Assembly (NCBI GenBank): GCA_030754595.1
Contig: JASLZZ010000127.1
Location: forward strand, 1-38,286
Length of the DNA stretch: 38,286 nt
Direction: 5' to 3'
Origin: Nitrospinota bacterium
GTDB taxonomy: Bacteria; UBA8248
Part shown: positions 2,120 to 28,709 of the stretch, one piece after another
Position numbering within the stretch: the stretch's first letter is position 1
Layout: every line of letters starts with the position of its first letter
Made by a program: the position numbers and the translations under genes
Notes under the pieces: generated by a model
Told to the model about the DNA's origin: nothing
The model's input: only the letters and a program-made list of their open reading frames with translations
The model's database searches: none

Positions 2120-2197
2120 GACCCCATCGTCCAGTCTGGCCCAGGACACCGGCCTTTCAAGCCGGCAACGCGGGTTCAAATCCCGCTGGGGTCACCA
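2120..2197 (+). tRNA. trnE: tRNA-Glu (anticodon UUC)
   Basis: Acceptor stem GACCCCA/TGGGGTC, D stem GTCC/GGAC, anticodon arm CCGGC-CT-TTC-AA-GCCGG, T arm GCGGG-TTCAAAT-CCCGC, and an encoded 3' CCA. Confidence 0.97.
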
Positions 2198-2592: not shown

Positions 2593-2621
2593 TTGACGTT
2601 TCGGGGGCTTCCGATTAGACT
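2593..2621 (+). promoter_or_regulatory. Sigma70-type promoter of the sugar ABC operon
   Basis: TTGACG (2593-2598), a 17-nt spacer and TAGACT (2616-2621), about 155 nt upstream of ATG2777. Confidence 0.65.
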
Positions 2622-2776: not shown

Positions 2777-4780
2777 ATGGAGAATAAAGCAACCCTCCTA
2801 GAAATGAGAAATATCGACAAGTCCTTTCCCGGCGTCCATGCCCTCAAGGAAGTGGATTTTGTCCTGGAGTCGGGACAGGTTCACATACTCCTCGGCGAGA
2901 ACGGCGCCGGAAAATCCACGCTCATCAAAATCCTGTCCGGAATCTACCAATCCGACAGCGGCGAAATACTCCTGGAGGGGAGCCCCACCGTTATCCCCGA
3001 CGCACGGACGGGCCGTGACCTGGGTATCAGCGTCATATATCAGGAGCTGAACCTAGTCCCCGATCTCAGCGTAGCGAAGAATATTTATCTGGGCCGGGAG
3101 CCGGTCCTTCCCGGATTTTTAAAGAAAGTGGATTGGGAGCATGTCGAAAGAGAGTCGCGCGAGGTGATGAAACGGCTGGACGTCGATATCGACATCCTTG
3201 CTCCGGTGAGATCGCTAAGCGTCGCGGATCAGCAGATGGTCGAAATCGCCCGGGCGCTTGCCTTCGACTGCAAGATCCTCGTCATGGACGAGCCGACCTC
3301 ATCGCTCAGCGGGCATGAAATCCATGAGCTTTTCAACGCCGTGGCCCGCCTCCGGGAGCAGGGGGTGGGGATCATCTACATCTCTCACCGCCTGGATGAG
3401 GTGCACCAAATCGGCGACCAGGTAACCGTTCTCCGTGACGGCGATTACATCGGCTCCTGGGATGTGAACGAGGTCGATCTCGATTTTCTCATCACCCAGA
3501 TGGTCGGCCGGATGCTGGACGAGAAATTTCCCTGGACCCCCCGCGAGCGGGGCGAGGTGGCGCTCAAGGTCAATGGCCTCACCCGCGAGGGTGTTTTCGA
3601 GGACATCAGCTTCGACCTTCACTACGGTGAAATCGTCGGCATGTCGGGGCTCGTGGGCGCCGGGCGGACCGAGGTGGCCCGGGCCGTCATGGGCGCCCAC
3701 GAGGTGGACACGGGAACCGTCGAGATGACCCGCGCGACCCTTGAAAAAGAGGAGCGCCGGCGCCTGCCGCACTACCCGGCCTGGAAGGCGGTAGTGGACA
3801 TCGTGTTGTTCGTTCTCGCTCTTCCCGTCTTCACGGTGTTCTTTCAGGGAATCTACGACCCGGTGACGCTCAACATGAACACCCCGCCGCCGCTGTTTAG
3901 TGCGACGTGGTTTTATGAGTGGATCATCGGGGGGCCGCTCTACAACATTCCGAACGGGCCGGCGCCTTATCTCGCCGCCGCGGCCATCACAATCCTCCGC
4001 CAGGCTGGGCTTTGGTTCCTGGTGCCCCAGTTTGCCTGGCGGACCATGTGGCAGGACCTGGGCTCATGGTACGCCTTCGCCCTGTTCTCGATGGTCATCG
4101 TGAGCATGTTCACCCAGAATTTCTCCACCGAATGGGTCATGGTGACTGGCGGGGTGGCGATGGTGCTGGTGCGCCTCGTGCTCATCCTCACCCACGAGCG
4201 TAAATGGACCCCGACGCTGGCCATTCGCCAGGGGCTGGGCCTCCTCCCCGAGGATCGCAAGGTGCAGGGGCTCACCCAGGTGCTTTCGGTGGCTTTCAAC
4301 ACGACAAGCGCCAACCTCGGGCGCCTCATCAACCGTTTTTTTCTCAATCTGGTGATGGAAAAAAACCTGGTCGAAGAACACATTGATCAGCTCAAGATCA
4401 TGACCCCCACGCAGGACACCCTGATCCGCTTCCTCTCGGGCGGCAACCAGCAGAAGGTCGTCCTTGCCAAGTGGCTCTTCCGAAAGGCGGATGTCCTTGT
4501 TTTCGACGAGCCCACGCGCGGGATCGACGTGGGCGCCAAGTACGAGGTTCACACCCAGATGCTCAACCTCGCCAAGGAGGGAGCCGCCGTCCTGATGATA
4601 TCGAGTGAAATGCCCGAAATCCTCGGGATGAGCGACCGGGTGTTGGTGATGAGGGAGGGGCGCCTCACCGCGGACATTCCGCGCGATGAGGCGACTCAGG
4701 AAAACATACTTCGCTACGCGATGGTGGCGGATGAACACGCGGCGGGCGCTTCGCCCGCCGGCGGCAACGGAGGAAATTAA
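2777..4780 (+). CDS. Sugar (CUT2) ABC transporter ATP-binding protein, RbsA/MglA-like, with an internal membrane-domain insertion
   Basis: NBD1: Walker A GENGAGKST, Walker B ILVMDEPT, H-loop ISHR. NBD2: degenerate Walker A GLVGAGRTE, PEDRK, signature LSGGNQQK, VLVFDEPTRGIDVGAK, ISSE. It is 667 aa against about 500 aa for the family, because of a hydrophobic insert at nt ~3728-4204. Confidence 0.93.
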   Translation: MENKATLLEMRNIDKSFPGVHALKEVDFVLESGQVHILLGENGAGKSTLIKILSGIYQSDSGEILLEGSPTVIPDARTGRDLGISVIYQELNLVPDLSVAKNIYLGREPVLPGFLKKVDWEHVERESREVMKRLDVDIDILAPVRSLSVADQQMVEIARALAFDCKILVMDEPTSSLSGHEIHELFNAVARLREQGVGIIYISHRLDEVHQIGDQVTVLRDGDYIGSWDVNEVDLDFLITQMVGRMLDEKFPWTPRERGEVALKVNGLTREGVFEDISFDLHYGEIVGMSGLVGAGRTEVARAVMGAHEVDTGTVEMTRATLEKEERRRLPHYPAWKAVVDIVLFVLALPVFTVFFQGIYDPVTLNMNTPPPLFSATWFYEWIIGGPLYNIPNGPAPYLAAAAITILRQAGLWFLVPQFAWRTMWQDLGSWYAFALFSMVIVSMFTQNFSTEWVMVTGGVAMVLVRLVLILTHERKWTPTLAIRQGLGLLPEDRKVQGLTQVLSVAFNTTSANLGRLINRFFLNLVMEKNLVEEHIDQLKIMTPTQDTLIRFLSGGNQQKVVLAKWLFRKADVLVFDEPTRGIDVGAKYEVHTQMLNLAKEGAAVLMISSEMPEILGMSDRVLVMREGRLTADIPRDEATQENILRYAMVADEHAAGASPAGGNGGN

Positions 4781-5793
4781 TGAGCGCGGTATCGACGGTA
4801 AACGGTGAGAAGCTGATCTTCGGGTATCCCGCCAAGGACATCCCCTGGGAGCGCGTAATTCTGATCGGCGCCTTCGTCGCGCTGATGGTTTTTTATACTT
4901 TCGCTACGGAAAATTTCTTCACGCTGGATAATTTCACCAACGTCGTCCGGCGCGACGCCTGGCTGTTTTTTCTGGCCTACGCACAAACGATCGTGATCAT
5001 CTCGGGTGGATTCGATCTCTCCCAGGGCTCGATTATGAGTATCGTGAGCGTGATGGCCTGGAGCGCGATGCTGCACTTGGGGTTTGTCGGCGGGCTCGTC
5101 TCCGGGCTTCTCGTGGGAACGCTTTGCGGGCTCATCAACGGTTATTTCATCGGCGTTGTCAGGGTCTATCCCTTCATAGCCACCCTGGGAATGCTTTTCG
5201 TTGGAAGCGGGGCGGCCCAGCTCTGGACCGGCGGCCTCCAGATGGGAGGCTCCCGCGAGGGCGCGACGCTGCCCACCCACGTTGAAAACACTTATGTGGC
5301 TCTCTCGAAAGGGAGCCTCGGTCCCATCCCGCTTCCGGTAATCTGGGTTCTCATCGCCCTGGGGGTGACCTGGTATCTCCTCAAATTCACCCGCTTCGGA
5401 ACCTACGTCTATGCCCTCGGAGGCAGCGAGGAAACGGCTGTTTCGGCGGGCATCAGTTTTTCGCGGATGAAAATCGGCATTTTCGCGCTGAGCGGGCTCT
5501 TTTGCGCAATCGGGGGTCTTCTCCTCTCGGCGAACGTGAGCGCGGCGGGCGAACCCCGGCTCGGCGGCGGCGACCAGCTCCTCCAGTCGATCGGCGCCAC
5601 CATCATCGGCGGAACCCACATTTTCGGCGGGCGCGGAGGGGTTCTGGGCACGACGCTGGGCGCGCTTCTCATTATCTTTTTGGTGAACGGGCTGAACGTC
5701 CTGAGTATCGACACCTACCGCCAGCAAATTATCGTCGGGCTGGTCATTCTCGTCTCCATTTGGGTTAGCACCCTTCAAGAACAGAAGAAATAA
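4780..5793 (+). CDS. Sugar ABC transporter permease (RbsC/BPD_transp_2 family)
   Basis: IISGGFDLSQGS, PFIATLG, TRFGTYVYALGGSEETAVSAGI and IIGGTHIFGGRG motifs. TAATG overlap with the ATPase gene. Confidence 0.93.
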   Translation: MSAVSTVNGEKLIFGYPAKDIPWERVILIGAFVALMVFYTFATENFFTLDNFTNVVRRDAWLFFLAYAQTIVIISGGFDLSQGSIMSIVSVMAWSAMLHLGFVGGLVSGLLVGTLCGLINGYFIGVVRVYPFIATLGMLFVGSGAAQLWTGGLQMGGSREGATLPTHVENTYVALSKGSLGPIPLPVIWVLIALGVTWYLLKFTRFGTYVYALGGSEETAVSAGISFSRMKIGIFALSGLFCAIGGLLLSANVSAAGEPRLGGGDQLLQSIGATIIGGTHIFGGRGGVLGTTLGALLIIFLVNGLNVLSIDTYRQQIIVGLVILVSIWVSTLQEQKK

Positions 5794-5807: not shown

Positions 5808-6806
5808 ATGGCAAATGTTGCCATGCCTTACAAAAGCAAGCCGCTCGATGCCGTCCGCTCCTGGCTATCGCTGGAGAAGTACGGCCTCCTGGTGGCGTTT
5901 GTCCTGATGATGCTGGGGTTCTCCATCCTTCAGCTTTTGGGCTACGTGAACAATTTCATCGATGTTCACAACCTGACGAATCAGATGCGAAATGCATCTC
6001 TCCTGTTTTTCATCGTCGCGGGTCAGAGCATGGTGCTTCTTGTCTCGGGAATCGATTTGAGCCAGGGCTCCCTGCTCAGCCTTTCGAGCGTTATCATGGC
6101 TCAGGGAATCCTCGATTTCGGCATCGCCGTGGGCGTGCTCATGGGGTTCGGCGTCGCCGTCATGTTCGGATTCATCAACGGATTTTTAGTCGGCAGGGTG
6201 AAAATCCAACCCTTCATCGTCACCCTGAGCATGCTTTTCATCTGCGCGGGGATCGCCCTCGTCTTTACGGGTGGACGCACCATTCACCAGTTCACCAGCG
6301 CGCAGAAGGACATCCTTCAGACTATCGGGCTTACCGATTTTTTCCACATACCGGGGACCATGTTTATCGCACTCGCTTTCTTTGTAGTCCTTCATTTGCT
6401 CCTGACGCGCACCGCCCTGGGGCGGGCGATTTATCTGACGGGCGGAAACGAAGAGGCCGCCCGGCTCTCGGGAATCGATACGGGCAAGGTGAAGCTTATC
6501 TGCTACCTCATCAGCGGCTTCACCGTGGCCTTTACGTCGTTTCTTTATCTGGCCCGACTGCCCGCGACAAATGGGCTCGCCGGTTTTCAGCTTGAATTTC
6601 AGTCTCTGGCGGCCGCCGTCGTCGGAGGCACGACGTTCCACGGCGGCGAGGGCGGCGTCATCCAGGCGGTGCTGGGAACGCTTTTCATCGTATTTTTGCT
6701 GAACGGCTTGATATTGCTGGGGGTGGGCACTTTCGCCCGAGAAGTCGCCCTGGGGGTGATGCTCATCGCCGCCGTCACCATCAGCGCCCGCCGGCGGCGG
6801 GAATAG
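5808..6806 (+). CDS. Second sugar ABC transporter permease (RbsC family)
   Basis: SGIDLSQGS, PFIVTL, GRAIYLTGGNEEAARLSGI and VVGGTTFHGGEG motifs. RBS TAAGGAG. Confidence 0.93.
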   Translation: MANVAMPYKSKPLDAVRSWLSLEKYGLLVAFVLMMLGFSILQLLGYVNNFIDVHNLTNQMRNASLLFFIVAGQSMVLLVSGIDLSQGSLLSLSSVIMAQGILDFGIAVGVLMGFGVAVMFGFINGFLVGRVKIQPFIVTLSMLFICAGIALVFTGGRTIHQFTSAQKDILQTIGLTDFFHIPGTMFIALAFFVVLHLLLTRTALGRAIYLTGGNEEAARLSGIDTGKVKLICYLISGFTVAFTSFLYLARLPATNGLAGFQLEFQSLAAAVVGGTTFHGGEGGVIQAVLGTLFIVFLLNGLILLGVGTFAREVALGVMLIAAVTISARRRRE

Positions 6807-6955
6807 TTTGCCGGAGGAAATTTTCGATATCGATTTTCCGAGAAGAGGAGGAGATCAATATCTAGGAAATCTACGGTGTTCTGAACTAATGCTGAATCGC
6901 GGAACCATTGGAGCCCATGTTTGTATATTTTTCCTTTAAGGAAAAGGAGGAAGCG

Positions 6956-8026
6956 ATGAGAACGAAACTGTTTCGCTCACTGACACTTCTTGCTGTGATG
7001 GCGGCTTTTCTGTTCACGGCCACCTTCGCGGCGCCGAAGGCCGAGGCCGCCAAGGCGAAGAAAGCCTACAGGATCGCCGTCGTCGTGCCGAACGGCGTTG
7101 ACCCCTACTTCTTCTCGAAGTGGTTCGGCAGCGTCCGTGAAGCGAAAAGGCTGGGCGTCTCCGTCACCATGTTCGACGCGGGCGGCTATGAATTTTTGCC
7201 CAAACAGGTGGCCCATGTCGAGGACATCATTGCCGCCAAGTACGACGGCATGATCATATGCCCGATCAGCACAAAGGGCATGGTCAACGCCGTCCACAAG
7301 GCGATTGACGCGGGAATGCCGGTCGTGGTGGACAACATCGACCTCGACAGCGACCGGGTGAAGAGCCGCGTCATGAAGAACAGCTACCAGCTCGGCCTGC
7401 TCATCGGCTCCGCGATGGCAGAGGCCATCGGACACGAGGGCAAGGTCATCATGCTCCCCGGACCCAGCGGCATCGAGATGGTCACCTCCATGGCCAAGGG
7501 TTTTGAGGACTATCTAAGCCACTATCCCAAGGTCAAGATCGTAGCCAAGGAGTTCACGAAATCGAACGTGCAGGCCTCCTATCAGACGGCCGAGGACCTC
7601 CTGAAGAAGCACCCGGACGTCGCAGGCATCTATCCCTGGGCGACCCTGATCGCGCGCGGAACGACCGACGCCGTCAAGGCCTTCTCCAAGGCCAACGGCT
7701 TCAAAGCCGGCAAGATCAAGATCGTGACGCACAACATCGCCGTCGGCGTCGAGAAGGACATCCGGGACGGCTGGACATATGGCGCGGTGCTGGCCGAGCA
7801 GATCGGCATGGCGAGTCTGGCTGTGAGTAACGTGGTGGACCTCATCGAGGGGCGTCAGCCTCCGGGAGCGCCTCACCGCGGCGGGACGCTTTCATACATC
7901 AAGAACTTCATGGTGTACAAAAGCAGCCTCGACAAGATCGACCGGAGCGGGATGCAGGCTCCCAAAGAGTGGATGATCAAGCGGGCGAAGCGGTCGAAAA
8001 ACATCGTCGGCGGAAAACGCCGCTAG
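6956..8026 (+). CDS. Sugar ABC transporter periplasmic substrate-binding protein (RbsB/Peripla_BP_4-like)
   Basis: ATG6956 follows AAGGAGG. Sec signal peptide MRTKLFRSLTLLAVMAAFLFTATFAAPKAEA. RIAVVVP..DPYF, YDGMIICP, AGMPVVV and KHPDVAGIY fit a type I binding-protein fold. Confidence 0.9.
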   Translation: MRTKLFRSLTLLAVMAAFLFTATFAAPKAEAAKAKKAYRIAVVVPNGVDPYFFSKWFGSVREAKRLGVSVTMFDAGGYEFLPKQVAHVEDIIAAKYDGMIICPISTKGMVNAVHKAIDAGMPVVVDNIDLDSDRVKSRVMKNSYQLGLLIGSAMAEAIGHEGKVIMLPGPSGIEMVTSMAKGFEDYLSHYPKVKIVAKEFTKSNVQASYQTAEDLLKKHPDVAGIYPWATLIARGTTDAVKAFSKANGFKAGKIKIVTHNIAVGVEKDIRDGWTYGAVLAEQIGMASLAVSNVVDLIEGRQPPGAPHRGGTLSYIKNFMVYKSSLDKIDRSGMQAPKEWMIKRAKRSKNIVGGKRR

Positions 8027-8481: not shown

Positions 8482-9570
8482 TCACATCGCGGGAAGCCCC
8501 GTGGCGTAAAGATTCAACTCCATCAGGCCGGTCGCCCCGCCGGGCTTGGGGTCCGATATTTTTTCCGTCTGTAATTGACCCGCGCCGTCCACCGCGCGGA
8601 CGGTCGCGGGGTAAAATCCATCCTCCGGAAATTCCATCCGGAAGGCCCAGGGCGTCCAGGCGAGGGAACCGAGCGGTTTCTTGACGAGGGCGGGCGCCCA
8701 AGGGTGTCTTTTCGGGCCCAGGCCGTAGGCCACCTCGACGCGGCTGATTCCCCTGTCGCCGGCGAAGGCCGAACCCACGAGCCAGGCCGACGGCGCCCCA
8801 ACCGTCACCCGCCGGCGCGGCGCCTCGAACCGGCTCAATGTCTCGACGCGCGCCGCGTCCGACCATCCCCTGCCTTGCCAATAGCCCGCGTGGCCGCCGG
8901 CCGCCACCTCGGTGGACCGAATCCACTTCACGTTCTTGAGTCCGTAGACACCCGGCGTAAGCAGCCGCAGGGGAGCGCCGTGATCGGGGGGCAGGGGGGC
9001 GCCGTTCATGCGGTGACAGAGGAGGGTGCGCTCGTCCAGCGCCGCCTCGAGCGGAATCGAATCGTGATACCCGTCCGCCGCCCGGAACACCGCGCGCCAC
9101 GCCGGCGACCTCAGCGCACTCTCGCGGGGGGACGCCCGCTCGAGCAGCGCGCGAAGGGGGACCCCGCGCCAGAGAGCATTGCCGATCTGCCCGCCGCCCA
9201 CGGGGTTCCCGATGCAGGTGATCGCCGCCCAGGCCTCGCGCTGGGGCAGGGCGGTCAAATCCGAAGCGATCAACTCAAAAGGAGAGTTCACCGACCCTCC
9301 CACGGAGATTTTCCAGTCTACCCGCGTCCCTCCGGCGGGGGTCCACCCGATGCTCTGTACATAGAATTTGCCGGTGGGTGTGATTTCGGGGAGCACCCGC
9401 GCGGAGAAATCGAGAATACTCTCGCCCGGCAGGGGGGACTCCACCGGACGGCTGTTCAACCAATCGAAGATGCGCCCGAGCATGGCCTCCGCCCGGCCGG
9501 CGGGGCCGATGAACGCCAGCGCGGCTGTCGATGCCCCGCCTCCGATCAGGCTCCGCCTGGAAATTCCCAC
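8482..9570 (-). CDS. Tat-exported molybdopterin-dependent oxidoreductase (sulfite oxidase family)
   Basis: GTG start after GGAGGAG. Twin-arginine SRRSLIGG. Mo-ligand region AITCIGN, GNALWRGVPL, MNGAPLPPDHGAPLRLLTPGVYGLKNVKW and GYWQGRGW, plus a C-terminal Ig-like dimerisation domain. Confidence 0.9.
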   Translation of the reverse strand: MGISRRSLIGGGASTAALAFIGPAGRAEAMLGRIFDWLNSRPVESPLPGESILDFSARVLPEITPTGKFYVQSIGWTPAGGTRVDWKISVGGSVNSPFELIASDLTALPQREAWAAITCIGNPVGGGQIGNALWRGVPLRALLERASPRESALRSPAWRAVFRAADGYHDSIPLEAALDERTLLCHRMNGAPLPPDHGAPLRLLTPGVYGLKNVKWIRSTEVAAGGHAGYWQGRGWSDAARVETLSRFEAPRRRVTVGAPSAWLVGSAFAGDRGISRVEVAYGLGPKRHPWAPALVKKPLGSLAWTPWAFRMEFPEDGFYPATVRAVDGAGQLQTEKISDPKPGGATGLMELNLYATGLPAM

Positions 9571-9826: not shown

Positions 9827-10569
9827 AGGGCCAAAGCGCCTTCGTCACAGGAGCGGCCACGGGCATCGGCGAGTCCTGCGCCCGAAAACTCGCGGGCGGG
9901 GGCGCCTCGGTCGCCGTTTGCGATATTGACGAGGAAGGCGGAGCCCGGGTCTCCGAGTCGATTCGAAACGAGGGGGGGCGGGCGGGTTTCATCCGCGCGG
10001 ATCTCACGGATTGGGAGCAGGTGCGCACCGCCGTCGAGGGTTTTCAGCACGAGCAGGGCCGCCTCGATATCGCCATTCACAGCGCCGGGGGGTTTCCCCG
10101 GTATTTGAGCCTTCTCGATTGTCCGGTCGAGGCGTGGGACCTTGTAGTCGATTCGAACCTGAAGACCATGTTCTATCTGCTCAAGGCCGCGGCGCCTCTC
10201 ATGATCGAGGGCGGCTACGGCCGGTTCGTATCCCTGTCGAGTATGGCCGCCCGGAGCGGGGTGAACCCGAATCCCCCTCACTACACGGCGGCGAAGGCGG
10301 GGGTTCTCGGCCTGACGCGGCAGGCCGCGCGGGAACTCGGGCCCCACGGCATCACCGTGAACGCTGTCGCGCCCGCCAACGTGCGCACCCCGAGAACGGT
10401 GAAAATCCGCACCGAGGAGCGCATCCGCCATATCGAGCGGACCACCCCAGTGGGCCGCCTCTCGGAGCCGGACGAAATCGCCGAGGCCGTGCTCTTTTTG
10501 TGCAGCCCCGAGGCGAGCTACATCACCGGCGTCACCCTCGACGCGAACGGCGGCGCGACGATGGTTTAG
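9808..10569 (+). CDS. Short-chain dehydrogenase/reductase (FabG-like SDR)
   Basis: TGAATGIG Rossmann motif, HSAG, catalytic S...YTAAK, and GITVNAVAP. Confidence 0.93.
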   Translation: MSQGKFEGQSAFVTGAATGIGESCARKLAGGGASVAVCDIDEEGGARVSESIRNEGGRAGFIRADLTDWEQVRTAVEGFQHEQGRLDIAIHSAGGFPRYLSLLDCPVEAWDLVVDSNLKTMFYLLKAAAPLMIEGGYGRFVSLSSMAARSGVNPNPPHYTAAKAGVLGLTRQAARELGPHGITVNAVAPANVRTPRTVKIRTEERIRHIERTTPVGRLSEPDEIAEAVLFLCSPEASYITGVTLDANGGATMV

Positions 10570-10577
10570 GTGAACCA

Positions 10578-11651
10578 ATGACACCCGGAAATCTTCCCGG
10601 CAGAATGGCGGCGGTGGTCCTCGAGGCGCCGAACCGCATCGTGAACGAGGATCGGCTCCTGCCCGAGGCGGGGCCCGGCGAGGTGATCGTCAAGGTGCGC
10701 GCCTGCGCCTTGTGCGGGACGGATATACATGCCTGGCGCGGCCTCTTCGCCGGGGTGCGGCTTCCCGTGGTGCTCGGTCATGAATTCGCCGGCGAGGTGG
10801 TGGCTCTGGGCGAGGGAACCGAGGGCGTCCCCCTTGGGCTCCGCTGCTGCGTGGAGAATCTTATCACCTGCGGCGAGTGCGAGTTTTGCGGGACCTCGCG
10901 GCCGAATCTGTGCACCTCGCTCGAATCCATCGGAAATACGCTCGACGGCGCATACGCCGAGTACGTCTCCGTCCCGGCGGAGTGCGTCGTCCCCCTTCCC
11001 GGGAAAGTCTCCTACGATGTGGGCTCGGTCATGCAAACGCTGGCGACGGCCTATCACGCCGTCCGCGACGTGGGCGGTGTGCGGCGGGGCGAGCGCGTGG
11101 CGATTCAGGGGGCGGGGCCCATCGGACTCTGTGCCCTGGCGGTGGCGAAGGCCGAGGGGGCCTATGTCGCCATATCGGATACCGTGGGTTACCGGCTCGA
11201 GGCCGCCGAGAAAATGGGGGCGGATGCCGCCGTTAACCCGGCCGAGGCCGGTTTTCCCGAGCGGCTCGGCCAACTGACCGGCGGCGCCGGATTCGACAAG
11301 GTGATCGAGGCCGTCGGCGGCGCCCAGGAGGCCACGCTCCCAGAGGCCTGCCGCATCGTGAAGCGAAACGGAACGGTTGTCGTGATGGGCGTTTTTGCCG
11401 GGGAGGGTACCCCGATTCCGGCGGAGGAGGTCCGCCGTCTCGAGATTGTCATCAAGGGAGCGCGCGGGCGCTACGCCGGCCAGTTCGCCGAGTGCCTGGA
11501 GCTCGTCGCCTCCGGAAAAATCGATCTCGCCCCGATGCTCACCCACCGCGTGCCGCTCAGCCGGGCTGTGGAGGGCCTCGAGATGATGGAAGAGAAACAA
11601 GACGGAGCGATCAAGGTGATTCTCGAGCCGGCCGGGTCTTCGGAGGATTAA
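10578..11651 (+). CDS. Zn-dependent medium-chain alcohol dehydrogenase (sorbitol/threonine DH-like)
   Basis: Catalytic Zn motifs CGTD and GHEFAG, structural Zn CGECEFC...C, and GAGPIG. Start reassigned to ATG10578 after AGGTGA. Confidence 0.92.
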   Translation: MTPGNLPGRMAAVVLEAPNRIVNEDRLLPEAGPGEVIVKVRACALCGTDIHAWRGLFAGVRLPVVLGHEFAGEVVALGEGTEGVPLGLRCCVENLITCGECEFCGTSRPNLCTSLESIGNTLDGAYAEYVSVPAECVVPLPGKVSYDVGSVMQTLATAYHAVRDVGGVRRGERVAIQGAGPIGLCALAVAKAEGAYVAISDTVGYRLEAAEKMGADAAVNPAEAGFPERLGQLTGGAGFDKVIEAVGGAQEATLPEACRIVKRNGTVVVMGVFAGEGTPIPAEEVRRLEIVIKGARGRYAGQFAECLELVASGKIDLAPMLTHRVPLSRAVEGLEMMEEKQDGAIKVILEPAGSSED

Positions 11652-11870
11652 AGGCTGCGAGGGAAAAGTGGCAATGGATTGAGGGCGGCGAAGGGTTGAG
11701 GGCTGCGTGCCGGGCACTCTCTTGACCCGCCCCGGCTGGATGCCTTTTAATAGGTTTGGTTGATTTTCCCGACATGCAAAGCGGATTAATCGCTCGGAGC
11801 GCCAGCGGGCCGTGCGGTCCGGAATCGGGCCTTCCCGCTTGATCGGGATTCGCATAAAGGGGCCATACCC

Positions 11871-13937
11871 ATGCGGTTCGCTGTGGACACCGGCGGGACC
11901 TTCACCGATCTTGTGATGGAGGACGATAAAGGCGTCCTTCATATGTTCAAGGCGGCCACGACGCCCGACGATCCCGTCCGGGGGATTCTCGATGTCGTGG
12001 CCTCGGCCGCCGACAGCCTCTCGCTTTCGCCTCGGGACCTCCTTTCCCGGGGCGATCTCTTTATCCACGGCACCACCTATGCCATCAACGCGATTATCAC
12101 CGGCAATACCGCCCGAACCGCATTCCTCACCACCAAGGGGCACCCGGACGTATTGGTCCTCCGCGAGGGCGGGCGGATAGAGCCGTTCAACTTTCTCGTC
12201 CCTTTTCCGAAGCCCTACATTCCCCGGGCGCTTACGTTCGAGGTACCCGAGCGAATCACTTCCGCGGGCGAGGTCGCGCAACCGCTGGACGAGGCGGCGG
12301 CGATTGAAATCATCAAAAAACTAAAGAGTCTCAAAGTCGAATCCGTCGGGGTGTGCTTTCTTTGGTCCACCGTCAACCCCGCGCACGAGGATCGCATCGC
12401 CGAGCTTCTCGAAGAGAACCTGCCGGGGGCGCCCTACACCCTTTCTCACGTCCTCAACCCGATACTCCGCGAATACCGCCGCGCTTCGTCGGCCTGCATG
12501 GACGCCTCCCTCAAGCCCCTGATGAACAACTACCTGGGGGGGCTCTCGGAGCGTTTGTCGGGGGCGGGTTTCTCGGGGAGGCTGCTCATGCTGACCTCGC
12601 AGGGGGGCGTGATGGATGTGAGGGATTTGATCGCCGCGCCGATTCACGCCATCGGTTCGGGCCCCTCGATGGCCCCCATCGCCGGGCGCCACTTCGCCCG
12701 CGCGGACACGAAATCCGGCACCGCCATCGTCGCCGATACGGGCGGGACGACCTACGACGTCAGTCTCGTCCGGCGAGGGACCATTCCCACGACCCCCGAG
12801 ACCTGGATCGGCCAGCGCTACCGAGGACACATCGTCGGCTTTCCTTCGGTGGACGTGAAAAGCATCGGCGCCGGAGGGGGCAGCATCGCCTGGGTGGACG
12901 AGGGCGGACTACTTCACGTCGGCCCCCAGAGCGCGGGCGCGGTTCCGGGGCCGGCCTGCTACGGGCGGGGCGGGGAGCGGCCCACCGTGACGGACGCATC
13001 ACTCGTTCTCGGACACATCGACCCGGCCTATTTCCTGGGCGGCGCGATGGCGCTCGATTCAACAAAGGCCGAAAATGCAATCCGGAGCGATGTGGCCAAG
13101 CCCCTGAACTTGAGTCTCGAGGAGGCGGCGGAGGCGATCCTGAGGCTGGCCACCGAAAACATGGTGGGCGCCATCGAGGAGATCACCATCGATCAGGGGA
13201 TAGACCCCCGGGGGGCGGTCCTCGTAGGCGGCGGCGGCGCGGCCGGTCTGAATTCGGTGGCCATCGCCCGGCGGCTGGGCTGCGAGCGCGTGATCATCCC
13301 CGAGGTCGGCGCCGCGCTCTCGGCCGCGGGCGCGCTGATGAGCGATTTGCACGCGGATTTTAGGGCGCTCCACTACTCTTCCTCGGTCAGTTTCGATTTC
13401 GGCGGGGTGAACGCCACCCTGAAATCGCTTGCCGCCAAATGCAAGGCGTTTTTCAAGGGGCCGGGGGCGGGAGCGCTCGACCATTCCATCGAAATCTTCG
13501 CCGAGGCCCGCTACCGCCACCAGATTTGGGAGATCGATCTTCCCATCGATTTGACCCGCTTCAAGACGGAAAAGGAAGTCGCGCGGGTCCGCAGGGAGTT
13601 CGACGCCGCGCACGAAGAAATATTCGCCGTCAGGGACCCTGACTCGGACGTGGAGTTCGTCGGCTGGCGGGCCGTCGCGCGGTGCAAGTTGAGAGCGGGG
13701 CGGTTCGGTAAATTGGGGCATGAGAAAAAATTCGAGACAAATCTGCCCGCGAGGCGCAAGGCCTACTTCGAGGGCAAAGGGCGGGTAAACACTCGGGTGG
13801 AATTGTTCGAGAGCATGAAGCCGGGCGCCGCCATGAGGGGCCCCGCCATCATCGAATCGCCCTTCACCACCGTCGTTGTCGATCCCGGAGCGAGGGTGGT
13901 GAGAACAAGAAGCGGGAGTCTGGTGATCGAAGCCTAG
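11871..13937 (+). CDS. hyuA: Hydantoinase/oxoprolinase subunit A (HyuA/OplA family)
   Basis: AVDTGGTFTD, HGTT, LTTKGHPD, DTGGTTYDVS, IGAGGGSIAWVD, VGPQSAGAVPGPACYGRGG and GPAIIE motifs. Confidence 0.93.
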   Translation: MRFAVDTGGTFTDLVMEDDKGVLHMFKAATTPDDPVRGILDVVASAADSLSLSPRDLLSRGDLFIHGTTYAINAIITGNTARTAFLTTKGHPDVLVLREGGRIEPFNFLVPFPKPYIPRALTFEVPERITSAGEVAQPLDEAAAIEIIKKLKSLKVESVGVCFLWSTVNPAHEDRIAELLEENLPGAPYTLSHVLNPILREYRRASSACMDASLKPLMNNYLGGLSERLSGAGFSGRLLMLTSQGGVMDVRDLIAAPIHAIGSGPSMAPIAGRHFARADTKSGTAIVADTGGTTYDVSLVRRGTIPTTPETWIGQRYRGHIVGFPSVDVKSIGAGGGSIAWVDEGGLLHVGPQSAGAVPGPACYGRGGERPTVTDASLVLGHIDPAYFLGGAMALDSTKAENAIRSDVAKPLNLSLEEAAEAILRLATENMVGAIEEITIDQGIDPRGAVLVGGGGAAGLNSVAIARRLGCERVIIPEVGAALSAAGALMSDLHADFRALHYSSSVSFDFGGVNATLKSLAAKCKAFFKGPGAGALDHSIEIFAEARYRHQIWEIDLPIDLTRFKTEKEVARVRREFDAAHEEIFAVRDPDSDVEFVGWRAVARCKLRAGRFGKLGHEKKFETNLPARRKAYFEGKGRVNTRVELFESMKPGAAMRGPAIIESPFTTVVVDPGARVVRTRSGSLVIEA

Positions 13938-13969
13938 GGGCTCGCGCCCAGGTGATCGAAGTTTGGGGA
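13922..13969. repeat. Diverged duplication of the hyuA 3' end
   Basis: ggtgatcgaagcctagggg (13922-13940) vs ggtgatcgaagtttgggga (13951-13969), with an 11-nt identical core and a 29-nt period. Confidence 0.55.
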
Positions 13970-14042
13970 ACAACAAAGCGGCGTTTTTTTCGGCTCCGTA
14001 TTTTTCGGCTCAACGGGTACGAGTCAATGAGGAAATCGGGTC

Positions 14043-15902
14043 ATGGCGAGAGCGAAGACAAAGGTCAAGGGCAAATCAAAAAAAGCGGGGAAAAGAAAAC
14101 CCGCCGGCCGGGGCGTGAAAAAAGCGGGGATGGACCCCGTCACCCTGGCCGTGCTGAGCAAGCGCTTTGAGTCCATCACGACGAAGATGGCGAATACGCT
14201 CCTGCGGACGGGGCGGTCGGGCGTGCTCAACCTGGCGAAGGATTTCTCTACGAGCATCGTCACGCGCGATTGCGAGCTTATGACCGGGGCGGAGACGCTT
14301 CCGATCCACGTTTTGAGCGGCGCCGATCTAATGGCGCGGTCGATGATGGACCTCCATCCGGCGCTCCGGCGCGGCGACGCGTTTTTGCACAACTCGCCTT
14401 ATCACGGATGCTCTCATCCCGCCGACCACACGATTCTCGTCCCGGTCATCGACAAAAAGGGTGAGCATCACTTCACCGTTTGGGTGAAGGCGCATCAGGC
14501 GGACTGCGGCAACGGCCAGCCGACGACCTACATGGGACACGCCCGCGATGTTTACGAGGAAGGCGCCCTGATTTTCCCCGCCGTCAAGGTTCAGGAGAAC
14601 TATGAGGACATCGAGGACATCATACGCATGTGCCAGATGCGCATCCGGGTTCCGGTCCAGTGGCGCGGGGATTTTCTGGCCATGATCGGAGCGGCGCGCA
14701 TCGGCGAGCGGGAAGTCCTGGCGATGGCCGATGAATACGGCTGGGAGACCCTCCACACCTTCTCGGGGGAGTGGTTCGACTACAGCGAAAAGGTGATGAT
14801 CGCCGCCATTAAAAAGATGCCGAGCGGCAGCGCCACCGCCACCAGCACGCACGATCCCGTCCCCGGGACCCCCGAGGGGGGAATCCCCATCAAGGTCGGG
14901 GTCAAGATCGACAGCAAAAACGCGCGCATCGAGGTGGACCTCAGGGACAATCCCGACGCCATGCCCTGCGGGCTCAACCTCAGCGAGGCCTGCGCCCGGA
15001 CGGGGGCCATGATCGGCGTCTTCAACAGCATCGAAGATCTCGTGCCCACTAACGCGGGCAGTTTCCGCCGGCTCAAGGTCCACATCCGCGAGGGATGCGT
15101 CGCGGGCGGGGGAAAACACCCGACGAGCATGTCGGTGGCGACGACGAATCTGGCCGATCGGATGACGAATCCCGTCCAACGGGCGTTTTCGAAAATCAAG
15201 GACGGTCTCGGTCTCGCCGAGTGCGGGCCGATCTTCCCGGCCTCGCTCGGCGTCATATCGGGGGTCGATCCCCGAAACGAAAACGAGCCGTTTGTGAACC
15301 AGATTTTCCTGCTCGATACGGGAGGCGCGGCGGCCGCGAAGACCGACGCCTGGCTGACGATCTGTCACGCGGGAAACTCGGGCATGTGTTTCATCGACAG
15401 CGTCGAGCTCGACGAACTTCATTTTCCCTTTCTCGTGGATGAGCGGCGGCTCGTGGTCGACACCGAGGGAGCCGGGCGCACCATCGGCGCGCCCTCGGGT
15501 TATTGCGAGTACGGACCGGTCGGCGGCGGCGAACTGGAGGTGGTCTATGTGGCCGACGGCGCGACGAACAACGCCAAGGGGACGCTCGGAGGCCACGACG
15601 GCGAACGCATCAGGAACTATCACCGCCGCCGGGACGGCGAACTGATAGAGCTGCCCGCCTGCGAGGATATTATTCTCAAGCCGGGCGAAAAAATCGTTTC
15701 CTATTCTTCGGGTGGCGGGGGCTACGGCCCGCCCATCGAGCGGCCCGCCGCACAGGTGAAATTCGATGTGGACGAGGGCTGGGTGTCGAAAGAGCGCGCC
15801 CATGAGGTCTACGGCGTCGTGTTCCGGGAGGACGGCTCCGTCGATGAGGCGGCGACCGCCGCTCGGCGCGAGGCGCTCAAGACCCTTGAGGCGGCCGGAT
15901 AA
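14043..15902 (+). CDS. hyuB: Hydantoinase/oxoprolinase subunit B (HyuB/OplB family) with a basic N-terminal tail
   Basis: MDPVTLAVL, RTGRS..L..AKDFS, metal-site region NSPYHGCSHPAD and KAHQAD, EEGALIFP, and GGGGYGPP. ATG14130 is an alternative start. Confidence 0.93.
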   Translation: MARAKTKVKGKSKKAGKRKPAGRGVKKAGMDPVTLAVLSKRFESITTKMANTLLRTGRSGVLNLAKDFSTSIVTRDCELMTGAETLPIHVLSGADLMARSMMDLHPALRRGDAFLHNSPYHGCSHPADHTILVPVIDKKGEHHFTVWVKAHQADCGNGQPTTYMGHARDVYEEGALIFPAVKVQENYEDIEDIIRMCQMRIRVPVQWRGDFLAMIGAARIGEREVLAMADEYGWETLHTFSGEWFDYSEKVMIAAIKKMPSGSATATSTHDPVPGTPEGGIPIKVGVKIDSKNARIEVDLRDNPDAMPCGLNLSEACARTGAMIGVFNSIEDLVPTNAGSFRRLKVHIREGCVAGGGKHPTSMSVATTNLADRMTNPVQRAFSKIKDGLGLAECGPIFPASLGVISGVDPRNENEPFVNQIFLLDTGGAAAAKTDAWLTICHAGNSGMCFIDSVELDELHFPFLVDERRLVVDTEGAGRTIGAPSGYCEYGPVGGGELEVVYVADGATNNAKGTLGGHDGERIRNYHRRRDGELIELPACEDIILKPGEKIVSYSSGGGGYGPPIERPAAQVKFDVDEGWVSKERAHEVYGVVFREDGSVDEAATAARREALKTLEAAG

Positions 15903-20698: not shown

Positions 20699-20740
20699 GG
20701 GCGGGTTGATTTTCCGTTTCAAATAAAGGGGGCGTTATCC

Positions 20741-21369
20741 TTGCCGCTTATCGATCTGACGGTTCCGCTTCGCGAGGGGATGCCGGTCTGGCCGGGCGAT
20801 TCGGTCCCCCGCATCAGCTACCAGCGATCTTTCGAGGCGGGAGATAAAAACAACGTCTCCTCGGTGGCGATGGGTCTTCACACCGGAACCCACATGGACG
20901 CGCCCAAGCATTTTATTCCCGGCGCGGGCGGGATGGAAACGCTGCCGCTCGATACGATCATAGGCCCCGCCCGCGTGATCGAGATCGAAAACCCTGACCG
21001 GGTGGAGGCAGAGGAGTTGAGGGGAAAAAACATCGGCGGCGCGACGCGGGTTTTGATTAAAACGCGAAATCCCGGCGCGCGGTGGTGGGAAAAACCCTTC
21101 GACCCCGATTTTGTCACATGACGGAAGAGGCGGCGCGGGTGCTGCTCGGCGCGGGAATGCAACTGCTCGGCGTGGATTGCCTGTCCGTCGATGGGTATGC
21201 GGCCGATGCCTCACCCGTGCACAATCTTCTGCTGCCCGCCGGGGCGGTGCTGCTCGAGGGCCTGAATCTATCGGACGCCCCTCCGGGCGATTACGAACTT
21301 TTCGCGCTGCCCGCCCTTTTCGAGGACCGGGACGGCGCCCCGGCAAGAGCGGTGTTGCGAGCCCTTTAG
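20741..21369 (+). pseudogene. Cyclase-family metallohydrolase (kynurenine formamidase KynB-like), frameshifted
   Basis: MPVWPGD and HTGTHMDAPKH lie in one frame; GVDCLSVD, VHNLLL, LEGLNL and DGAPARAVL lie in another. Adding one T to the T4 run at 21109-21112 gives PDFCHMTEEAA and joins them. This could be a read error. Confidence 0.85.
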
Positions 21370-21390
21370 CTTTCAGACGGGAGTTTTCCA

Positions 21391-22557
21391 TTGGACTTTC
21401 AGTTGAGTGAGCAGGACAGACTGCTCCAGCAGACGGCCAGGGATCTCGCCCTGCGCGAGTTTCAGGAGACGGCCTACAACTATGTGAAAACCGAGGAATA
21501 CCCCCGCCGCTCGATGAAGGTGCTCGCCGACCGGGGGATGATGGGAATGACGGTCGCCGGGCCCCACGGCGGGGGGCGCCCGCTCCTTGAGGCTTGTCTC
21601 GTGATGGAGCAGATTTCTCAAATCTGCCCGCACAGCGGCGATGTCGTCCAGATGGGGAACATGGGTCCCGTCCGGGTGATCGACGAATTGGGAACCGAAG
21701 CGCAAAAGGCCCGCTTTCTCCCCCAAATTTGTGCCGGCGAGAAGATCATCGCCATCTCGATGAGCGAACCCGACGCCGGCTCCGCCGCGACCGATCTGAA
21801 GACAACCGCCCGCTACGACGGCGACAGCGTCATCGTCAACGGGCAAAAAGCCTTTTCGTCGAACTCCCCGCACGCCGATCTTTTCGTCGTCTACGTGCGT
21901 TTCGGCCCGAGGACGAAGGATTGCGGCGCGGTTGTCGTCGAGACCGGAACCCCCGGCTTCACGAAAGGAAAGACCGAGCGGTATATGAGCGGGGAGGCGC
22001 ACTGTGTTCTTCACTTCGACGACGCTCGAATCCCGAAGGAAAACGTACTCATCGATAGCGAGGGTTTCCGGGTGCTCATGCCGGTCTTCAACGTCGAGCG
22101 GCTCGGTAACGCGACCCGGTGTCTCGCCCTCGCCCAGGCCGCCTACGACATGACCGTAGAGCACACCCGGACGCGGCATCAGTTCGGCCGCCCGCTGTGC
22201 GAGTTTCAGGGGGTGCAGTGGATGGTGGCGGACATGCGGGTCAAGCTCGAGGCCGCGCGGCTCTTACTCTACCGGGCGCTCTCGAATGCCAGGGACGGCC
22301 TTCCCTCGGCCGTCGAAACCACCTCGGCCAAGCTTTATTGTAACGAGATGGCGCGGCAGGTGGCCGACGATGCGGTTCAGCTGCACGGCGCCTACGGGTT
22401 TTCCACCGAGATGCCGCTCGAGTATCTCTACCGGAAGATCAGGGGTTGGTCGATCGCGGGAGGTACGGTCCAGATTCTCCGCAATCGGCTGGCGAGCGAA
22501 ATTTACGGCCGGAACTTCAGCCAGCGCCCTCCGCGCCCGTCCCCCAGCCCGGAATAG
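21391..22557 (+). CDS. Acyl-CoA dehydrogenase family protein
   Basis: MSEPDAGS, NGQKAF, FNVERLG, RHQFGRPLCEFQGVQW, QLHGAYG and IAGGT motifs. TTG start after GGGAG. Confidence 0.93.
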   Translation: MDFQLSEQDRLLQQTARDLALREFQETAYNYVKTEEYPRRSMKVLADRGMMGMTVAGPHGGGRPLLEACLVMEQISQICPHSGDVVQMGNMGPVRVIDELGTEAQKARFLPQICAGEKIIAISMSEPDAGSAATDLKTTARYDGDSVIVNGQKAFSSNSPHADLFVVYVRFGPRTKDCGAVVVETGTPGFTKGKTERYMSGEAHCVLHFDDARIPKENVLIDSEGFRVLMPVFNVERLGNATRCLALAQAAYDMTVEHTRTRHQFGRPLCEFQGVQWMVADMRVKLEAARLLLYRALSNARDGLPSAVETTSAKLYCNEMARQVADDAVQLHGAYGFSTEMPLEYLYRKIRGWSIAGGTVQILRNRLASEIYGRNFSQRPPRPSPSPE

Positions 22558-24731: not shown

Positions 24732-24904
24732 TTATTAGGTGCCAGCGGACCGAATCACTGACCAAACCCTATTTTTATTAGTACATGGGCATGAATTTAG
24801 TTGAATCTTCCTTAAATCCGAATAGAATAGTATCCATCTTGCGACATTCATATATTTAGGGTTTTCAAGGACTTTGGCCCTTGCGCATTCATGGGGACGA
24901 AAGG

Positions 24905-25903
24905 TTGCCCAAGCTTCTCGAAATCGAAGATCTGAAGACTCAATTCTTTACTTCCGCCGGGACCGTACGGGCCGTGGACGGTATTTCCTACGATGTCGAG
25001 GAGGGCGAGACCGTCGCCCTGGTTGGCGAATCCGGCTGCGGCAAATCCGTGAGCGCGCTCTCGGTCCTGAGACTGATTCCGGATCCCCCGGGAGAAATTG
25101 TCGATGGAAGCGTTCGTTTCATGGGTGAGGATTTATTGAAGCTCGACGACGATGCTATCCGGCACGTCCGGGGCCGCCAAATCTCCATGGTGTTTCAGGA
25201 ACCGATGACATCTCTGAACCCGGTGTTGACGATAGGGCTTCAACTCACCGAAACCATGGAGCACCATCTCGGTCTGAGCCGGGAGGAAGCCACCCGGAAG
25301 GCGGCCGAGTATCTCGATTTGGTCGGTATCGGGGATGCCGACCGCCGTCTCCAGCAATACCCCCACCATCTGAGCGGAGGTATGCGCCAGAGGGTGATGA
25401 TCGCGATGGCGCTTTGCTGCGAGCCGAGAATCATCATCGCCGACGAACCGACCACGGCGCTCGACGTCACCATACAGGCCCAGATTCTCGAGGTCATGAA
25501 AGATCTGAGCAATCGCCTTGGCGTGGCGCTCATCATCATCACCCATAATCTTGGCGTGGTGGCGCGCTATGCCGATCGCGTAAATGTCATGTACGCGGGC
25601 AAGATAATCGAACGCGCATCCGCCCGTGAGATTTATAAAAACCCGAAGCATCCCTACACCCTGGGGCTCCTGAATTCGGTGCCGCGCCTCGATCTTCCCC
25701 GGCGGGACAAACTCGATCCGATCGAGGGCCAGCCGCCCGATCTGACAAAGCTCCCCGAAGGGTGCGCCTTCCGGGCGCGTTGCCGCTTCGCGGTGGATCG
25801 ATGCGCCTCCGAGGTTCCTCGGCTCGAAGAGGTCGGCGGCGGGCATCTTTCGGCCTGCTGGGAGAAAAGCAACCTCCGGAAAACGGCGGAGGCCGTCTCA
25901 TGA
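24905..25903 (+). CDS. oppD: Oligopeptide/dipeptide ABC transporter ATP-binding protein (OppD/DppD)
   Basis: [40 protein letters not shown] and C-terminal Fe-S Cys motif GCAFRARC. Likely TTG start at 24905. Confidence 0.95.
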
Positions 25904-26928
25904 GCGCCACGAGAGCGGCCCAGACCTTCGCCGGAGCATCGAACGGCGGCCGGGGGGATACGCTCGTCGAGGTGAATAACCTCAAGATGTATTTCCCCAT
26001 CACCGAGGGAATTCTGATCCAGACCCATGCCGGTTTCGTGAAGGCCGTGGACGGAATCAGCTTCATGATAAAAAAAGGGGAGACTCTAGGGCTTGTCGGT
26101 GAATCCGGATGCGGGAAGACAACGACTGGCCGGTGCATCCTCCAACTGGAGAACCCCACCGCGGGGGAGATCAAGTTCGATGGCGTCGAGTTGACCTCGC
26201 TCGATGCACGCCAGCTTCGCGATGTACGACGAAAAATTCAGGTGATTTTCCAGGACCCCTACAGTTCGCTCAACCCCCGGATGAAAGTGGGCGATATCAT
26301 CGGTGAGCCGATGTATGTCCATGGCCTCGAGCCCGACAAGGAGAAACGCCGCAAGCGGGTGCGGGAGCTGCTCACCACCTGCGGCCTCAGGCCGGAAATG
26401 GACGATCGCTACCCCCACGAAATGAGCGGCGGCCAGCGTCAACGGGTGGGGATCGCCCGGGCTTTGGCCCTCGAACCCGAGTTCATCATATGCGACGAGC
26501 CGGTTTCGGCTCTCGATGTGTCGATTCAGGCCCAGGTGATCAACCTGCTCGAGGATTTGCGCGATAAATTCAATCTCACCTACCTGTTTATCGCCCACGA
26601 TCTGAGCGTTGTCCGCCATCTGTGCCACCGCGTGGCGGTGATGTATCTGGGCAAAATTGTCGAATTGGCGGAATGCGACGAGTTATACGATAATCCGATG
26701 CATCCATATACGAAGGCCCTCCTTTCCGCCGTCCCGGTCCCGGACCCGGAAATCGAGGAAGAACGCCAGAGAATTATTGTCTCGGGGGAAATCCCAAGCC
26801 CCATCAACCCCCCGAGCGGTTGCGTGTTCAACCCGCGGTGCTCCATCGCGGCGGATGGTTGCAGGGGCGAGGTTCCTGTGCTCCGGGAGCTTAAGCCCGG
26901 TCACTGGGTGGCCTGCCCCGAGGTGTAG
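25900..26928 (+). CDS. oppF: Oligopeptide/dipeptide ABC transporter ATP-binding protein (OppF/DppF)
   Basis: [38 protein letters not shown] and [10 protein letters not shown] motifs. ATGA overlap with oppD. Confidence 0.95.
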
Positions 26929-27013
26929 GGGAGAAAATTTCAAGGAGGTTGTTGAAAGCAGGTTTTTAACCGGGAGGGGTGGCCCTCTCTTTCGTTAGTT
27001 AGGAGGAACGAAA

Positions 27014-28636: not shown

Positions 28637-28657
28637 CAACGGTTGGTTTTGAGTCTT

Positions 28658-28692
28658 TTCCCGCCCGCCGCGATCAACGCGGCGGGCGGGAA
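28658..28692. terminator. 15-bp perfect hairpin after the SBP gene (partial terminator or mRNA stabiliser)
   Basis: TTCCCGCCCGCCGCG-ATCAA-CGCGGCGGGCGGGAA, followed by GCTTT. Confidence 0.7.
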
Positions 28693-28709
28693 GCTTTCGG
28701 AGTTTTAGG

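Follow-up and report, generated by a model that had tools for sequence, protein, structure and literature searches.

The ATPases of ATP-binding cassette (ABC) importers are textbook soluble subunits. In the CUT2 family (TC 3.A.1.2) two nucleotide-binding domains (NBDs) are fused on one polypeptide, and the ATPases known from E. coli (RbsA, AraG, XylG and MglA) are soluble proteins of about 500 amino acids (aa); the CUT2 profiles of NCBIfam are 492 to 513 aa long. In ABC proteins of the MacB/FtsX type (type VII) an NBD is fused to four transmembrane (TM) helices, the first two of which (TM1 and TM2) flank a periplasmic domain, and in CFTR a soluble, disordered regulatory insertion of approximately 30 residues lies in the first NBD between its strands 1 and 2. 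Here we describe a CUT2-type ATPase gene from a Nitrospinota bacterium (GenBank assembly GCA_030754595.1), located in a stretch of 38,286 nucleotides of contig JASLZZ010000127.1 that was analysed as a whole and is called the window below. The second NBD (NBD2) of this ATPase is interrupted by 159 residues that contain four hydrophobic helices. On balance we think it rather probable that this insert is a four-helix membrane module, which would make the ATPase an integral membrane protein and act as a built-in accessory subunit tethering NBD2 beside the permeases, with a conserved loop rich in proline and aromatic residues on the periplasmic side.

The protein is a CUT2 ATPase by its domain content, motifs and operon. 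It matched the NCBIfam CUT2 profiles with E-values from 4e-166 to 1e-104 (AraG 4e-166, XylG 7e-156, RbsA 3e-154, MglA 3e-146), each match being split into two stretches that cover both NBDs, the first of which ended at approximately aa 310 to 326; Pfam ABC_tran was matched in three stretches (E 3e-46). It shares with CUT2 ATPases the two fused NBDs, the NBD1 motifs GxxGxGKST, LSxxDQQ and H-loop histidine, the NBD2 motifs GAGRT, PEDRK, LSGGNQQK and ISSE, and an operon with BPD_transp_2 permeases and a Peripla_BP_4 binding protein. It differs from them in its length of 667 rather than about 500 aa and in the 159 extra residues in NBD2, with their four hydrophobic helices between aa 335 and 472, and so departs from the CUT2 feature of a soluble protein of about 500 aa without hydrophobic segments. 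When compared with the curated equivalogs AraG, XylG, RbsA, MglA, GguA, YtfR, AlsA and LsrA the protein scored below every cut-off (at best 553 bits against 689, for AraG), so that no substrate can be assigned from the profiles. One member of its protein clusters is named "sugar ABC transporter ATP-binding protein" in public annotation. A sequence search of the PDB returned no CUT2 ATPase, the best match being ABCB4 at 4e-29.

The motifs of both NBDs could be placed on either side of the insert. NBD1 contains the Walker A motif GENGAGKST (aa 40-48), the signature-like LSVADQQ (aa 147-153), Walker B (aa 167-174) and H204. The N-terminal part of NBD2 contains Walker A GLVGAGRTE (aa 291-299), followed by the strand GTVEM; after the insert come the helix TPTLAIRQG, the Q-loop-like PEDRK (aa 491-495), the signature LSGGNQQK (aa 553-560), Walker B VLVFDEPT (aa 573-580) and ISSE (aa 608-611), at the position where an H-loop would be. 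The non-canonical motifs are thus those of NBD2, namely GAGRT, PEDRK and ISSE in place of the H-loop. NBD1, with GAGKST and the H-loop histidine, pairs with the canonical LSGGNQQK of NBD2, and the ATP site of NBD2 is completed by LSVADQQ of NBD1. Such asymmetry between the two NBDs is general to CUT2 ATPases. All of these motif residues were invariant in an alignment of 17 full-length proteins, and an insert-less homologue described below has the same pattern.

The insert occupies positions 3728-4204 of the window, corresponding to aa 318-476 or exactly 159 codons in frame. It is bounded by GTVEM upstream and by WTPTLAIRQGLGLLPEDRK downstream, the latter leading to the Q-loop position, and the insertion site lies approximately 15 residues ahead of PEDRK. 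Its GC content was 0.614 compared to 0.597 in the flanks, and 0.836 compared to approximately 0.78 at third codon positions. Using a Kyte-Doolittle (KD) window of 19 residues, values above 1.3 were confined to the insert, where four peaks were found (Table 1), and the maximum elsewhere in the protein was 1.04. An earlier note on this DNA, made from the sequence alone, had described an RbsA-like ATPase intact on both sides of a stop-free, in-frame insert of about 159 codons that was GC-rich like its host gene and held four hydrophobic segments, at a site where related ATPases have a short loop, and had placed two complete permeases beside it. The translation agreed with this description in each respect: all four quoted segments were located in the insert, the CUT2 profiles covered both flanks, and both permeases were recognized as BPD_transp_2 proteins, together with one Peripla_BP_4 protein.

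The normal state of the site could be seen in a sister genus of the same family, in which genome G012 (locus L016, a frame of 549 aa) encodes an insert-less CUT2 ATPase that is 56% identical to the window's protein over NBD1 and 64-66% identical over C-terminal NBD2. At the insertion site this homologue reads GNIVLRGERLRPRTPRDTIRRGLGLIPEDRK, with 8 residues (RGERLRPR) instead of 159 and nearly identical flanks. The insert thus replaces about 8 residues, which form the turn of the beta-hairpin that follows the NBD2 Walker A helix in the antiparallel-beta subdomain. The gene order of L016 is the same as in the window; its permeases and binding protein are only 36-42% identical to those of the window, so that another substrate is probably served. 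A search with the whole ATPase in five insert-less genomes found insert-less CUT2 ATPases in G012 and G040; with this query no tandem ATPase was found in G048, G043 and G008, where only matches of single-NBD type were obtained, with E-values of at least 1e-30.

The insert was found in one family of the phylum. Of 1682 candidates in a search with the insert region, 21 protein clusters reached E<=0.001, with 61-100% identity in the insert; 18 of these were 643-670 aa in length and three were shorter (391, 428 and 439 aa), and some were encoded on contigs of 2.9 Mb. In six-frame whole-genome searches the insert was present in 27 of 51 Nitrospinota genomes (16 of the 29 of high quality), distributed over three of 15 genera, all belonging to one family: g1 (three of four genomes, in addition to the window's own), g3 (22 of 23) and g7 (one of one). 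It was always in single copy and in a stop-free open frame of 628-710 aa, several single-contig genomes being included. At least 90% of the sampled words of a 1.2-kb stretch around the insert were present in each of 14 marine DNA runs from at least eight studies, and the whole of this stretch was covered by an 11-kb DNA contig, which may derive from the same source as the window. Metatranscriptome contigs from two studies bridged the 5' junction (3607-3778 and 3550-3797) and one bridged the 3' junction (4065-4366); no joint or indel was seen at the insert junctions in the bridging contigs. Coverage by these RNA-library contigs was partial, with none over positions 3985-4064, for example.

No gaps appeared in the insert when the 17 full-length proteins were aligned, and 56 of its 159 positions were invariant. 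For the codon analysis 15 loci were examined, of which 13 had full open reading frames (ORFs) by a motif filter; L003 and L006 were dropped and the duplicates L005 and L007 removed, leaving 11 orthologues and 55 pairs. Synonymous rates (dS) were finite for 49 of these pairs in the insert, 34 in NBD1 and 43 in the N-terminal part of NBD2, and the median ratio of nonsynonymous to synonymous substitution rates (dN/dS) in these three regions was 0.11, 0.04 and 0.06, respectively; the ratios are rough because synonymous sites were near saturation. The corresponding mean proportions of nonsynonymous and synonymous differences (pN/pS) were 0.145/0.591 for the insert and 0.071/0.634 for the C-terminal part of NBD2, whose median ratio was undefined. 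By these measures the insert is clearly under purifying selection that appears somewhat weaker than that on the NBDs. Mean pairwise identity was 86% in loop 1, 64-72% in the helices and 88-89% in the NBDs, making loop 1 the best-conserved segment of the insert. At locus L003 (2931-4956), from a Nitrospinota metagenome-assembled genome, the orthologous ATPase was recovered in two tblastn pieces, aa 1-532 and aa 534-667, with a 10-nt offset, which points to a frameshift or to faulty sequencing of this record.

The predicted anatomy of the insert is given in Table 1 together with the surrounding genes. In the 17 sequences the mean number of lysine and arginine residues was 3.6 in the N-terminal flank, 2.0 in loop 2 and 1.8 in the C-terminal flank, compared to 0.4 in loop 1 and 0.1 in loop 3, an alternation that fits a positive-inside pattern for four helices with both ends of the insert in the cytoplasm; both halves of NBD2 would then stay in the cytoplasm as well. 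The earlier note had argued that an even number of TM helices would return the two halves of NBD2 to the same side. The four hydrophobic helices and the distribution of charges fit this argument; the membrane insertion that it presupposes is itself a prediction. Loop 1 follows the pattern QGIYDP..LNM..PP..S..WFYEW..G.P..I...P.P and contained on average 7.3 aromatic and 6.7 proline residues. Predicted helix 1 holds the invariant D341 and an ALP kink, and only about five residues (HERKW) separate predicted helix 4 from the point where NBD2 restarts. The invariant polar residues within helices (D341, R408, Q409 and R466) suggest that the helices pack around a polar core or form a specific interface. 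Two AlphaFold2 (AF2) predictions, one of the full-length protein from the 17-sequence alignment and one of the insert alone, agreed on the positions of the helices; the full-length model was used for these positions only. The best insert-alone model had a predicted local distance difference test (pLDDT) score of 72.7 and a predicted template modelling score of 0.65, with helices 2-4 at pLDDT 80-90.

Table 1. Features of the ATPase gene, its insert and the neighbouring genes (positions in the window; topology as predicted)
Feature	Position	Strand	Basis and remarks
tRNA gene	2120-2194	+	Rfam, 66 bits; between an EamA-family transporter gene (1120-1989) and an AT-rich spacer
Promoter-like site TTGACG-17-TAGACT	2593..2621	+	Consensus scan, 9/12 matches, no evidence of function; within the AT-rich spacer that precedes the ATPase gene
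CUT2-type tandem-NBD ABC ATPase gene, NBD2 interrupted by the insert	2777..4780	+	Stop-free ORF, 667 aa
NBD1 and first part of NBD2	2777..3727	+	Sequence; motif residues invariant in 17/17 aligned proteins
N-terminal linker of insert, aa 318-334, predicted cytoplasmic	3728..3778	+	Charged; predicted short helix
Predicted TM helix 1, aa 335-356	3779..3844	+	KD peak 2.64; helix in both AF2 models (approximately 335-357)
Loop 1, aa 357-395, predicted periplasmic	3845..3961	+	39 aa, Pro/aromatic-rich; AF2 short helix 377-384
Predicted TM helix 2, aa 396-416	3962..4024	+	KD peak 1.52; AF2 helix 396-415; invariant R408, Q409
Loop 2, aa 417-427, predicted cytoplasmic	4025..4057	+	Invariant D427
Predicted TM helix 3, aa 428-446	4058..4114	+	KD peak 1.61; AF2 helix 421-446
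Loop 3, aa 447-452, QNFxxE, predicted periplasmic	4115..4132	+	83% identity
Predicted TM helix 4, aa 453-472	4133..4192	+	KD peak 2.31; AF2 helix 451-476; invariant R466
Remainder of NBD2	4205..4780	+	Sequence, alignment
Permease 1, BPD_transp_2, RbsC-like	4780..5793	+	337 aa; Pfam, NCBIfam
Permease 2, BPD_transp_2, RbsC-like	5808..6806	+	332 aa; Pfam, NCBIfam
Periplasmic substrate-binding protein, Peripla_BP_4	6908..8026	+	Pfam; likely start M17 (nt 6956)
Oxidored_molyb protein (sulfite-oxidase/YedY-type)	8482-9570	-	362 aa; Pfam; convergent to the binding-protein gene

Taken together, these features would be explained if a lineage-specific orphan module of 159 residues had taken the place of the short beta-hairpin that comes after the NBD2 Walker A helix, in the antiparallel-beta subdomain. 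The module would consist of four TM helices with both termini in the cytoplasm, so that the two halves of NBD2 could fold together there, while loop 1 (between helices 1 and 2) and the short QNFxxE loop (between helices 3 and 4) would face the periplasm. The module would then tether NBD2 to the bilayer beside the two different permeases, and the conserved loop 1 would be placed on the periplasmic face near the docking place of the binding protein. The complex would become structurally asymmetric, and the module might fix which of the two permeases NBD2 sits under. The hairpin is likely to be membrane-proximal, since the NBDs of importers dock directly under the permeases and about 15 residues separate the site from the Q-loop position. 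Contact of the module with the permeases or the binding protein, and any effect on ATPase activity, are presumptive parts of this proposal.

Several observations weigh against this account. The mean pLDDT of the full-length AF2 model was 55, with 30-45 in the insert, four of the five insert-alone models reached only 50-56, and loop 1 scored 46-60 in the insert-alone prediction. The hydrophobicity of helices 2 and 3 is only moderate, and an invariant arginine lies in helix 2 (R408) and in helix 4 (R466). Membrane insertion and topology are both read from the amino acid sequence, and the closeness of the NBD2 hairpin to the membrane is taken from the general geometry of ABC importers. The RNA-library contigs are supportive of transcription but can contain DNA. 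Furthermore, other CUT2 systems with heterodimeric permeases function in the absence of a module of this kind, which leaves the need for one unexplained. A structure prediction of the insert with both permeases, in which NBD2 was left out, counts neither for nor against contact: the interface score ipSAE was 0.00 in two runs, with the controls not folded.

That the architecture arose from a chimeric assembly, a frameshift or an annotation error was one of the objections named in the earlier note. Nothing was found in favour of such an artefact beyond the source itself being a draft genome of 138 contigs with 6.4% contamination, and the objection fails: the same architecture recurs at the same site in the 27 genomes, closed ones included, most of the sampled words around the insert occur in the marine DNA runs, and the spanning DNA contig and the bridging RNA-library contigs cross both junctions, which makes an artefact extremely improbable. 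It is likewise very improbable that the insert is functionless, either in-frame junk or the remnant of a mobile element tolerated in a permissive surface loop. The site is indeed a surface hairpin, and the searches for relatives and for an origin of the insert were empty; nevertheless, the low dN/dS and the 56 invariant positions, at synonymous change near saturation, the lack of indels across three genera, the host-like GC content, and the single copy per genome, with no other copy in the window's own genome, all speak against this reading.

The nature of the insert leaves more room for doubt. A hydrophobic domain outside the membrane, such as a cytoplasmic or peripheral helix bundle for dimerisation or lipid binding, would accommodate the borderline hydrophobicity of helices 2 and 3 and the conserved arginines, and the closest matches in structure are helical bundles of a generic kind, several of which are soluble. 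We regard this as quite unlikely, as helices 1 and 4 reach KD values of 2.64 and 2.31 over 19 residues, the alternation of lysine and arginine suits a membrane topology, and the aromatic and proline content of the loop is typical of interfacial loops. A different possibility, raised in outline by the earlier note, is that the helices do cross the membrane and serve as a sensor or coupler. Loop 1 would then detect a periplasmic ligand or the docking of the binding protein, and a signal would pass through the four-helix bundle into NBD2 beside its degenerate ATP site, where it would gate the binding or hydrolysis of ATP by a route separate from the permease coupling helices. The conservation of loop 1, which is comparable to that of the NBDs, would be compatible with such a device, as would the invariant polar and charged residues in the helices, the connection of helix 4 to NBD2 through about five residues at a point about 15 residues before PEDRK, and the location in the NBD with non-canonical motifs. 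Set against this, the insert was homologous to no known sensor domain in NCBIfam, Pfam, the profile search or ESM Atlas, 39 residues would be small for a ligand site, and a structural contact surface would be equally conserved. A transmembrane sensor or coupler therefore seems to us a minority prospect, doubtful but deserving of attention, and the narrower claim that the module senses a periplasmic cue, or the state in which the binding protein is, and relays this to the degenerate ATP site of NBD2 is, if anything, a little more doubtful still. A membrane-anchoring accessory module beside the permeases is the reading that we prefer.

Searches for relatives of the insert were made with several methods. 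A profile of the 17 inserts, run with HMMER against 1.84 billion representative proteins, had a member of the same family as its sole match, and the insert was therefore taken to be an orphan module with no stand-alone form or detectable relative. At E<=0.01 no NCBIfam family was matched by the insert, and no Pfam match of the whole protein fell within it. When the 17 inserts were searched against Pfam up to E=10, weak sub-threshold matches at most were obtained; the FtsX and MacB families were not among these, although the HMMER filters drop most matches above approximately E 0.1. PDR_CDR, which was matched by nine of the 17 inserts with a best E-value of 2.4e-4, was rejected as a product of membrane-helix composition bias, the window's own insert scoring 6.7 bits against a cut-off of 20.5. 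No usable match by features was found in ESM Atlas, which has no structure of this protein, and a Foldseek search of the PDB with the insert-alone model gave none at E<=0.001 (best E-value 1.2). The best structural alignment by VIA-align was to the TRAP-gamma-like chain t of 8b5l, with a Z-score of 9.4, a root-mean-square deviation of 7.3 A over 122 residues and 5% identity; Z-scores below about 13 are common for helical bundles. Comparison of the insert profile with either permease (hhalign) gave a probability below 1%, tblastn with the insert found nothing below E 0.26 in any of the six frames, either in the remainder of the window or in three loci that lack the insert, no internal repeat was detected when the two halves of the insert were compared, and no second copy was found in the window's own genome.

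The joining of an NBD to four TM helices, here predicted ones, with the main periplasmic element between TM1 and TM2, is a point of likeness to the MacB/FtsX-type proteins. In those proteins, however, the transporter is the TM domain itself, which comes after the NBD, whereas here it is nested within the NBD and the permeases are separate. The regulatory insertion of CFTR NBD1 is similar in being lineage-specific, in lying in the antiparallel-beta subdomain of an NBD and in its position beside a degenerate ATP site; the window's insert differs in having 159 residues, in being hydrophobic and helical, and in its location after the Walker A helix. The literature, which was covered mostly at the level of abstracts and with subscription journals outside the scope, yielded no account of a CUT2 NBD that contains a membrane domain. 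The layout matches none of the described relatives found, and the role proposed for it is a presumptive one. The earlier note had asked whether the insert might be stand-alone elsewhere or already catalogued as a domain fusion, neither of which was found in these searches, and had put the locus forward as the best candidate in the window for an undescribed system. This last wording goes too far, since the operon is that of an ordinary CUT2 importer in which a single subunit is unusual.

The permeases scored under the NCBIfam cut-offs of their RbsC-like families. The binding protein has a Sec-type signal peptide after its likely start, and in NCBIfam it matched TorT best (8e-32; 110 bits, the cut-off being 200) and RbsB less well (5e-17). 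TorT is a periplasmic protein that senses trimethylamine N-oxide, and this order of matches indicates that the ligand may not be a sugar; the closest solved relative was a CUT2 monosaccharide-binding protein (7e-23). The window's own genome gave 14 BPD_transp_2 matches and one Peripla_BP_4 protein, which is that of this operon. No riboswitch was found upstream of the operon with Rfam, the tRNA being the sole Rfam match in the window.

Orthologues of the binding protein (at least 76% identity) were found in 28 of the 51 genomes, 27 of which carry the insert, and all other matches were at or below 40%. Only G020 has the binding protein without the insert; this genome is 79% complete and the gene lies near a contig start. 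The order ATPase, permease, permease, binding protein was seen in all five complete loci examined, L004 running off the end of its contig after the beginning of the second permease. Within the insert-bearing group both permeases were 72-99% identical, compared to at most 47% outside. As judged from these comparisons the insert is tied to one specific permease and binding-protein operon. The gene order was kept in two genera together with the convergent molybdopterin oxidoreductase gene downstream, and this Oxidored_molyb neighbourhood was 62-93% identical between them.

The permeases carry small lineage-specific insertions of their own, ATLPTHVE in permease 1 (5263-5286, aa 162-169) and AQKD in permease 2 (6300-6311, aa 165-168). 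Both are located at corresponding points of the loop that follows the fifth hydrophobic segment, and they are absent from more than 70% of 90 and 82 distant homologues, respectively. The loop may be periplasmic and could relate to the loop of the ATPase insert. Among the homologues of permease 1, a protein of 484 aa from another source (P0051) contains both BPD_transp_2 and ABC_tran and represents a permease-ATPase fusion in a CUT2-like system. Elsewhere in the window are a hydantoinase/oxoprolinase A and B pair (11871-15902, plus strand) and a complete peptide ABC importer of the Opp/Dpp type (24881-30602, plus strand), with two ATPases carrying oligo_HPY, a SBP_bac_5 protein and two BPD_transp_1 permeases. 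Frames of 218, 268 and 571 aa on the minus strand (20735-22179 and 10566-12281) had no Pfam match; that of 571 aa, which overlaps short-chain dehydrogenase/reductase and hydantoinase genes of the opposite strand, is unlikely to be a gene. With these additional importers, the genus of the window has more importers for organic substrates than are reported for N. gracilis in the available part of its description (PMC3578206).

A conserved membrane domain threaded through an NBD would challenge the picture of the importer ATPase as a soluble subunit. It offers a natural test of how much the beta subdomain of an NBD can tolerate, and of whether NBDs receive periplasmic signals directly. If the sensor reading were true, the module would provide a coupling route that bypasses the permease coupling helices, which to our knowledge has no counterpart among ABC importers. 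In the ocean, nitrite is oxidised mainly by bacteria of the Nitrospina type. Since the operon is present in 22 of 23 genomes of genus g3, we infer that it may be the same transporter as the one described for Nitrospina in the part of that report available to us (PMC3578206). If so, this unusual ATPase would stand at what is there the single known entry point of organic carbon into these autotrophs.

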